A DNA stretch of 32,000 nt from Candidatus Saccharimonadota bacterium (GTDB taxonomy: Bacteria > Bacteroidota > Bacteroidia > Cytophagales > Amoebophilaceae), in contig NZ_CP022339.1 in NCBI RefSeq assembly GCF_003351905.1, positions 810,001-842,000 of the forward strand, in the 5' to 3' direction. Numbering within the stretch: position 1 is the first letter of the stretch; the number at the start of each line of letters is the position of its first letter. Under the pieces are notes generated by a model. That model ran no database searches. It was not told the origin of the DNA and saw nothing but the letters and a program-made list of their open reading frames with translations. Positions 13,043-13,410 of the stretch are shown here, piece after piece. The translations under genes and the position numbers were made by a program.

Positions 13043-13410
13043 CTATTCTAATACAGAGATAGTAATGGCTAATGCGTATACACTGCTGCCCATGTCCGCG
13101 AATAAAAGTTGGCACGCAGTAAAAGTAATGAAACGAACGGTTCTGCAGCAGGGCTTTAACTTGATGAAATAAGAGCAAATATCTATCTGTTCAATGCACT
13201 ATTTTTTTGTGTTAAAAGAAAAATGCCCCTGTAAAAAGTCGTGGTCTAGAAAGTAGAATCCTACAGATGATTAGGAAAAACAGTTTCCTTTGAAGCCCCC
13301 AAGGGGGCGCTTTCTGTTTTTCCATCTGTAGGATGTCACTTTCAGCGACTTTTTGCCGAGGGCTTGATTTTTTGTTACTTTTTTATCAAGAAAAAAGTAA
13401 AGTAAGAATG
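13043..13410 (+). repeat. Family-1 dispersed repeat, long copy (about 140-bp 5' extension plus about 225-bp structured core)
   Basis: Extension 13043-13186 matches the reverse complement of 24655-24783 (aatggctaatgcgtatac..g..gcccatgtccgc..ataaaagttggcacgcagtaaaa). Core 13187-13410 matches 22012-22245 and the reverse complement of 24420-24653. The core includes nested inverted repeats around gccccc aa gggggc and a terminal hairpin tactttttt atcaag aaaaaagta. Confidence 0.9.

Follow-up and report, generated by a model that had tools for sequence, protein, structure and literature searches.

In a 32-kb stretch of Cardinium DNA, referred to here as the window, a long nested inverted repeat is present in several copies, and the original prediction held that the differences between these copies keep base pairing on one strand only, as would be expected of selection on a transcribed RNA fold or on a strand-specific single-stranded intermediate. 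The question that this locus raises is what kind of element carries such a fold and whether one of its strands is favored over the other. The comparison of the window with other Cardinium DNA very probably identifies a family of foldback MITEs, presumably moved in trans, in which the hairpin is maintained in the propagating lineages, the landed copies decay, and the wobble pattern is inherited from founders.

The sites of three full copies at 13187-13410 (+), 22012-22245 (+), and 24420-24653 (-), designated w13, w22, and w24, and of a short derivative at 759-827 (+) are confirmed in the sequence, and together with one fragment they make up the complement of the window. The full copies align at a mean column identity of 86%. 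The nested stems of w13 are as had been described, consisting of aaaaagtcg/cgacttttt, atcctacagatg/catctgtaggat, gaaaaacag/ctgtttttc, and gccccc/gggggc, and the differences between the copies were also read correctly: the two variable positions of the tacagatg stem are C-G, C-G in w13, U.G, U.G in w22, and U-A, U.G in w24, the outer stem of w22 contains two wobbles, and w24 has gccctc opposite gggggc. The boundaries, however, had been drawn too short, and the terminal inverted repeats (TIRs) and target duplications, which mark the element as a transposon, had been overlooked. In the alignment, the similarity between copies extends past the earlier coordinates up to sharp ends, and the core runs from terminal repeat to terminal repeat, for example at 22013-22269 (+) and 24396-24655 (-).

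The core of the repeat is about 258 bp long, with a range of 255-262 bp across the aligned copies, and its left end is GTATCTGTTCA..CTGGTT and its right end AACCAG..TGAACAGATAC; the termini are also written as GTATCTGTTCAAG / GTATGTGTTCAGCGC. The TIRs are imperfect repeats of about 22 nt in which about 17 of the 22 nt match overall, the outer 11 nt (GTATCTGTTCA) being the best-matched part, and the column pairs of the terminal repeats are complementary in 79-87% of cells. The foldback interior consists of two arms of about 65 nt that make up a near-perfect, GC-containing hairpin of about 140 nt, and the right half of the element also contains an inserted A/T hairpin of 26 nt. The whole element is near-palindromic, ends included, and this layout suggests an origin by inverted duplication of one end. 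The most conserved segments are the U-rich linker TTGATTTTTTG and the loop of the small hairpin, ATCAAG, both of which are also kept in the relatives on a DF plasmid and in cOegib that are described below. Long forms of about 290-350 bp exist as well: some copies have a doubled left end, the second one lying 30 nt upstream, and others have a right extension of 51-61 nt that finishes in a second GTGAACAGATAC. Several of these long copies have a perfect 8-bp duplication outside the doubled ends, which indicates that the extended forms transpose as units. Indels differ between the aligned copies, the ORFs that overlap the window copies (24340-24780 (+) and 24504-24758 (-) at w24) are all short, and the element is predicted to be without coding capacity.

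The three window copies represent different states of this architecture. The full core of w22 occupies 22013-22269 (+), with the left TIR at 22013-22034 and the right TIR at 22248-22269; the long foldback hairpin (22055-22194, +) is followed by the linker and then by the small A/T hairpin (22207-22232, +). This copy lies 57 nt after the stop of a UvrD-like helicase gene and is flanked by a near-perfect 8-bp duplication, CCTATTTA / CCTATTTT (7/8 match); its terminal hairpin reads CCACTTCTTG...AAAAAAGTGG and holds at least one A.C-type pair. In w24, the full core (24396-24655, -) contains the long hairpin at 24472-24613 and the small hairpin at 24434-24459, and it is part of an extended form with duplicated ends that spans approximately 24336-24686 (-). 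On the left of w24 is a degenerate duplicated left end of about 30 nt (24656-24686), and its right extension of about 60 nt (24336-24395) contains TTGACAATCAATAAAATATATTCATTAAGTTGAC and a second, degenerate right end. The remaining full copy, w13 (13183-13410, +), has its left TIR, the long hairpin at 13225-13363, and the small hairpin at about 13375-13400, and its right TIR, near 13410, is lost or degenerate; it sits between two convergent genes, an MlaD-domain gene at 12098-12991 (+) and a RING-finger ORF at 13451-13774 (-). The derivative, which runs from 760 to about 868 (+), is an internal deletion from which the whole long hairpin is missing, so that the left end (760-786) leads into the small hairpin (788-813) and a right extension, and its junction falls inside a TTTTTTG run that is present twice in the element. 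The fragment is a solo left end, CTGTTCAAGTAACTGGTTTTTTGCATTA, at 24293-24320 (+), which is 96% complementary to the left end of w24.

The window genes around the copies are bacterial (MurA, UvrD-like helicase, MlaD-domain protein, Ddl, FtsH, and SOD), and eukaryote-like C2H2 and RING fingers are interspersed among them. At window positions 1-745 (+), an ORF that enters from the edge encodes tandem eukaryotic-type C2H2 zinc fingers (KPYKCEVC..H..H) in four DNA repeats of about 96 nt, and its frame stops just before the MITE derivative; such an ORF is unusual in a bacterium, and it probably represents a pseudogene or an effector directed at the host. The ORF at 13451-13774 (-), which is convergent with the MlaD-domain gene, specifies 107 aa with an eukaryote-like RING-H2 finger (zf-RING_2, E = 8e-12).

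The distribution of the family was surveyed with a profile built from the three window copies and run over 256 kb of Cardinium DNA, comprising the 32-kb window and about 224 kb of loci from Candidatus Cardinium sp. TP. This search gave 37 full-length copies, three in the window and 34 in Cardinium sp. TP, and a total of 67 separate matches once antisense shadows were removed, about 30 of them being fragments; sense matches scored 220-300 bits and antisense matches 45-78 bits. Deletion derivatives recur in both the window and TP, for example one in which positions 1-75 of the model are joined to 165-258. One TP locus, L063, is syntenic with window positions 8495-15302 at 89-93% nucleotide identity. 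The window MurA shares 88-89% identity with its counterparts in several other Cardinium strains, among them cOegib and the Cardinium of Dermatophagoides farinae (DF). In a pattern scan of species-representative genomes, the real copies among the matches listed were only in Cardinium sp. TP, and a metagenome scan with a degenerate core pattern gave 32 loci, all due to chance, and no further family member.

More distant relatives are present in other Cardinium strains. A full-length but diverged copy lies on a DF plasmid (CP101109, 17607-17868, -), where the blastn match has 70.5% identity over about half of the element. In cOegib there is a decayed copy (L159, approximately 2428-2870) within which a small palindromic insert is nested; the insert, of about 150 nt (approximately 2560-2700), is bounded by CCGTTGCAATAGAA / TTCTATTGCAACGG and is possibly yet another small palindromic mobile element. 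Assembly GCA_022810485 (contig JAACGF010000202, 11475-11636; locus L160) contains a 162-bp element with 26-bp inverted repeats, GTATCTGTTCACCACTGTGGCAGAAA, the first 12 bases of which (GTATCTGTTCAC) are common with the present MITE, whereas its interior is unrelated and has no long foldback. Since this element shares the termini but not the interior, one transposase may serve several MITE families.

The ends and the target duplications, as read from the aligned copies, support transposition. Perfect 8/8 direct repeats flank eight copies (L014, L063, L060, L055, L072, L094b, L026, and L069c), and three further copies, including w22, have a 7/8 match; examples of the duplications are CCAAAATT, GCAGAAAC, GTTTTTTT, and CTTATTAC. 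The chance of a perfect 8/8 flank match is about 5e-4 per copy when the boundaries tried are allowed for. Many copies are without a recognizable target duplication, and these may be old or may have been rearranged beside other repeats. The combination of TIRs, a fixed 8-bp duplication, small size, absence of coding capacity, and many dispersed copies identifies the repeat as a MITE, and this foldback family is undescribed in the literature searched. No partner transposase was detected in the 256 kb: clustering of ORFs gave no multi-copy ORF of at least 120 aa, tblastn with an approximate IS26 query gave noise only in the search for an IS26-like transposase, no full-length IS with matching ends was seen, and the terminus pairs that lie 0.5-4 kb apart are merely neighboring MITEs. 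The lack of an autonomous partner in these 256 kb counts against the model, in which the element would be mobilized in trans. The IS6, IS256, and IS66 families are all listed for Cardinium (PMC9769881, Table 1). The 8-bp target duplication of the present element fits any of these three families. Its terminal GTATCTGTTCAAG shares a TCTGTT core, at the same offset, with IS6-family ends such as GGTTCTGTTGCAAAG, a likeness that may serve as a lead only. A full-text literature search for the terminal sequence returned nothing relevant.

A general scheme consistent with these features can be proposed. A DDE-type transposase encoded elsewhere would bind both ends and move the element in trans, each insertion duplicating 8 bp of the target. 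The foldback would have arisen by inverted duplication of one end; it is maintained in those lineages that kept transposing, and a copy, once landed, decays regardless of pairing. The variants comprise forms with a doubled left end (+30 nt), with a doubled right end (+51-61 nt), and with internal deletions, the doubled-end forms being transposed as units. Copies survive almost only downstream of genes, chiefly between convergent genes, where the hairpin could plausibly stop or insulate transcription.

Reports of MITEs in Cardinium have been confined to MITECca01 and MITECca02 of cOegib, which come from the IS982-family element ISCca4 (Halter et al. 2022, PMC9769881). They resemble the present family in being MITEs of about 240-260 bp with a high copy number in a Cardinium endosymbiont, mostly intergenic, located beside or inside other repeats, and presumably moved in trans by a resident IS. 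The sequences, however, are unrelated: MITECca01/02 have the termini ACGTGAATTCGGGATT / ACCTGAGTTCGGGATT, and MITECca01 is ISCca4-derived with an AT-rich interior, whereas in the present family the termini are GTATCTGTTCA, the target duplication is 8 bp long, and the foldback of about 140 nt is GC-containing. Identity with MITECca01/02 was rejected, as the terminus ACGTGAATTCGGGATT has 0 matches in the window with up to three mismatches allowed (sequences from the PMC9769881 supplement). The present repeat is unmentioned in the genome paper on the Sogatella furcifera Cardinium (cSfur) and in a 2025 Cardinium review, and in the expression paper on Cardinium TP (from T. putrescentiae) the term MITE denotes transposase fragments and the present element is not covered. 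Downstream of murA, cOegib carries a MITECca01 copy where the window has a member of the present family.

Comparable elements are known from other bacteria. The Correia elements (CREE/NEMIS) of Neisseria are 100-155 bp long, duplicate TA, form hairpins when transcribed, and can carry regulatory signals. They and the present element are alike in being short, abundant, and intergenic, with TIRs and long hairpins, and in that a parent transposase is not evident in the host; the present element differs in its 258-bp core and 8-bp duplication and has no sequence similarity to them. The ERIC/IRU and REP/BIME sequences of enterobacteria are imperfect palindromes that lie at the 3' ends of genes, are transcribed with them, and can influence termination or the stability of the mRNA; the present element is likewise an imperfect palindrome located at gene 3' ends. 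REPs are without TIRs or target duplications and are mobilized as single strands by RAYT (Y1) transposases. Assignment of the present family to single-strand elements of the REP or IS200-IS605 type is ruled out by its TIRs and 8-bp duplications.

The conservation of the fold differs between the family as a whole and its individual copies. The RNA fold of w13 has a minimum free energy of -79 kcal/mol on the + strand (z -7.5) and -68.2 on the - strand (z -6.8), relative to shuffled sequences. In the alignment of 37-38 sequences, standard pairs occupy 91.7% of the cells, compared with 44-52% when the partners are slid, and 19 pairs have changed on both sides, against 10.4 +/- 2.2 in shuffled data, a value reached in 0 of 500 shuffles. 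The DF-plasmid copy keeps the paired ends, the long hairpin, and the small hairpin (z -3.9), and its compensatory changes convert GAAAGTG/CACTTTC to GAAAGCA/TGCTTTC and GCCCCC/GGGGGC to GCCCG/CGGGC. Singletons, on the other hand, have a density of 0.54 per column in stems and 0.48 in unpaired columns (p = 0.56); private mutations are thus as frequent in stems as in loops, and purifying selection on individual copies is not apparent. The view that the element is not a neutral relic therefore holds at the family level, where the foldback is kept and stem substitutions covary, but not for young mutations, which ignore pairing and are largely random with respect to it in the larger alignment. Conservation of the foldback is a feature of the lineages that propagate, and the decay of copies that have landed is neutral.

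The genomic location of the copies bears on whether they are of use to the bacterium. Full copies are present in 13 of 22 convergent spacers, 15 of 124 tandem spacers, and 0 of 23 divergent spacers (chi-square p = 2e-8), counts that are based on crude ORF-based gene calls and on loci chosen because they hold copies. Of the full copies with two called neighbors, 15 lie between convergent genes, 9 are tandem in the sense orientation, 8 are tandem in the antisense orientation, and none is divergent. Each of these copies is downstream of at least one gene. An orientation bias relative to genes is absent, with 9 sense and 8 antisense copies in tandem spacers, and this random orientation to the flanking genes argues against a sense-specific RNA role in cis. 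There is a strong preference for gene 3' ends and no preference with regard to the direction of transcription. On the sense strand of each of the three window copies, the GC-rich apex hairpin and the GCUUUCUGUUUUU behind it match a terminator pattern, and the closed long hairpin is followed by a U-rich tract on both strands, UUGAUUUUUUG on the sense and GUUUUUCUUUU on the antisense strand. A hairpin followed by U-rich tracts on either strand is a plausible stop or insulator that would render insertions harmless or mildly useful, and on these motifs a mobile, orientation-independent transcription stop is plausible.

It could be argued from the same observations that use by the host is what keeps the copies, as it can keep REP, ERIC, and Correia elements, and that they serve as mobile bidirectional terminators or as mRNA-stabilizing hairpins at 3' ends. 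The placement of every full copy with two called neighbors behind a gene, the occupation of 59% of the convergent spacers and of none of the divergent ones, the hairpins with their adjoining tracts, and the rank of the U-rich linker as the most conserved segment would all fit such a role, but simple removal of promoter-disrupting insertions yields the same location pattern, usual terminators have stems far shorter than the roughly 65 bp seen here, and the private mutations fall in stems as often as in loops. Retention of the copies by host use is considered unlikely.

A hairpin without function is doubtful to much the same degree. Here the foldback would be a by-product of inverted duplication, with arms kept matched by intramolecular repair or gene conversion, and the excess of wobbles would have hitch-hiked by chance in founders. 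This explanation accommodates the near-palindromic layout of the whole element, ends included, the recurrence of central deletions typical of unstable palindromes, the neutrality of young mutations with regard to pairing, and the element of GCA_022810485, which has the same termini without a comparable foldback. It accounts poorly for the persistence of the foldback and of compensatory changes in copies that are about 70% identical (blastn match) and for covariation above that of all 500 shuffles, and arm-to-arm conversion is undocumented for such short repeats in this organism.

The remaining alternative is the one that had been proposed for this locus, in which selection acts on one strand only and the element functions or propagates through a single-stranded molecule, either a structured sense RNA or a strand-specific ssDNA intermediate. 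The sense fold is the more stable one in 34 of the 37 copies (mean -94.1 vs -83.4 kcal/mol), and the hairpin cells of the 37-copy alignment contain 147 G.U pairs, 46 A.C-type pairs, and 83 other mismatches. Counts of distinct stem variants, however, are nearly equal, with 36 of the G.U type and 30 of the A.C type (18 and 22 among singletons), and over all 67 matches they are 37 and 36. The skew is limited to variants present in at least five copies, of which 7 are of the G.U type and 1 of the A.C type, a ratio that is not significant by itself (sign test, p about 0.07) and concerns few events that are not independent but related by descent. The frequencies of G.U variants are higher than those of A.C variants (Mann-Whitney p = 0.03-0.04), again for events that are not independent. 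In further favor of a strand effect, one polymorphic pair is UG in 27 copies, UA in 6, and, according to the alignment used, CG in 1-2; polymorphic pairs pass between C-G and U-A by way of U.G and not C.A; and parsimony on a poorly resolved tree assigns about 63 events from Watson-Crick to G.U and about 42 from Watson-Crick to A.C pairs. Transitions from the consensus fall evenly on the two strands (24 C>T and 23 G>A; 9 A>G and 13 T>C); a strand bias of mutation as the source of the wobble excess was rejected because C>T and G>A variants are equal in number.

Several other observations speak against selection on one strand. In the DF-plasmid copy the sense strand is not the more stable one (-70.4, against -72.5 for the antisense strand), the orientation of copies relative to genes is even, and the stems are not depleted of private mutations. 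The TIRs and 8-bp duplications point to double-stranded DDE transposition, for which no single-stranded fold is needed. Rfam 15 gave 0 matches at the gathering score over the whole window, and the best value in a permissive scan of w22 was E = 0.34-0.42, far below threshold. With DNA energy parameters, w22 has -49.2 on the sense and -41.3 on the antisense strand, the same asymmetry as with RNA parameters, and an RNA and an ssDNA form are thereby indistinguishable. The pairing itself is not confined to one strand: the pattern is real in the three window copies, but its wording as pairing on one strand only was overstated, as two A.C-type pairs are present in w22 and one in w13. Strand-specific selection on an RNA or single-stranded intermediate is therefore a weak explanation, with equal variant counts, random orientation, and a DF copy without asymmetry, and we regard it as improbable.

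The sense advantage arises from about seven shared wobble polymorphisms that are common by descent, and the one-strand pattern is attributed to a few G.U wobbles fixed in subfamily founders rather than to ongoing strand-specific selection, the evidence for a strand effect being suggestive at best. The model of a trans-moved foldback MITE does not by itself explain the 7:1 ratio of G.U to A.C shared variants, nor the extreme conservation of the linker and of ATCAAG. It is conceivable, although improbable, that the G.U excess among old shared variants is real and that the foldback of a transposon with TIRs and target duplications is constrained on one strand only, so that its successful lineages would need a single-stranded sense form. 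If this were true, the single-stranded form could be a transcript that aids spread or tolerance, for example as a sense-specific terminator or RNase substrate, or, alternatively, a folded ssDNA that brings both ends of the element together.

Other repeats adjoin the MITE. A second repeat family (..GCTAATGCGTATACGCCGTTGCCCATGTCCGCCGATAAAAAGTTGGCACGCAGTAAAAGTAATGAAACGAAC) lies directly to the left of it at both 13031-13150 (+) and 24672-24791 (-), and in at least 15 TP loci this repeat is cut at varied points by the left end of the MITE; the MITE may favor it as a target, or it may belong to a larger composite. A third repeat, at 870-951 (+) and 24215-24296 (-) with 89% identity, lies behind the right extension of the MITE in both cases and was not seen beside the TP copies examined. 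Within the right extension of long copies is a conserved TTGAMAATCAATAAAATATATTCMTTAAGTTGAC (24349-24382, -; 822-855, +; also in TP loci), which looks like an outward-facing promoter, with TTGACA-type and TTTG..TAnnTTG-type motifs near the end of the element, and in the window it faces the 3' ends of convergent genes. Two ORFs without a Pfam match, at 22354-23346 (+) and 23419-24204 (+), lie between w22 and w24, which are inverted relative to each other, and the first of these ORFs is 100% identical to a hypothetical protein of cSfur, its sole homologue among 5.8 billion proteins. The arrangement resembles a composite transposon, and its outer flanks are without a shared duplication; a composite of w22 and w24 around the two orphan ORFs was rejected, as the outer flanks differ and w22 has its own duplication.

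Comparison with related strains gives some indication of when copies were inserted. Two Logan short-read contigs from one run (SRR25400081) represent a related strain that is 93-95% identical to the window, and each of them, L154 (8601-8649) and L155 (approximately 11460-11494), has one end that stops inside the left end of a copy. The w22 insertion site is occupied in L154, with the same flank, and since both site and flank are common to the two strains, this insertion predates their split. Behind murA and behind the MlaD gene, lineages that are 93-95% identical carry different insertions, and in a more distant Cardinium (L156) a convergent gene comes next after the helicase gene, without an element between them. 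Among the related loci compared, no clean empty site with one copy of the 8-mer was recovered. The repeat family appears to fragment short-read assemblies and may be under-counted in draft genomes.

The element is of an expected kind and does not represent a new mechanism. It constitutes a second MITE family for Cardinium, unrelated to MITECca01/02; reports of MITEs from maternally inherited endosymbionts have so far concerned a single Cardinium strain, cOegib. The family is common to a planthopper-type strain and a mite strain, and older relatives are present on a plasmid and in a spider strain. It fills most of the convergent gene spacers, and its copies are where short-read contigs of a related strain break off, which makes it relevant to the annotation and assembly of Cardinium genomes and to the dating of insertions. 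It also raises the question of whether, as genomes shrink, the terminators that are lost are replaced by mobile hairpins.
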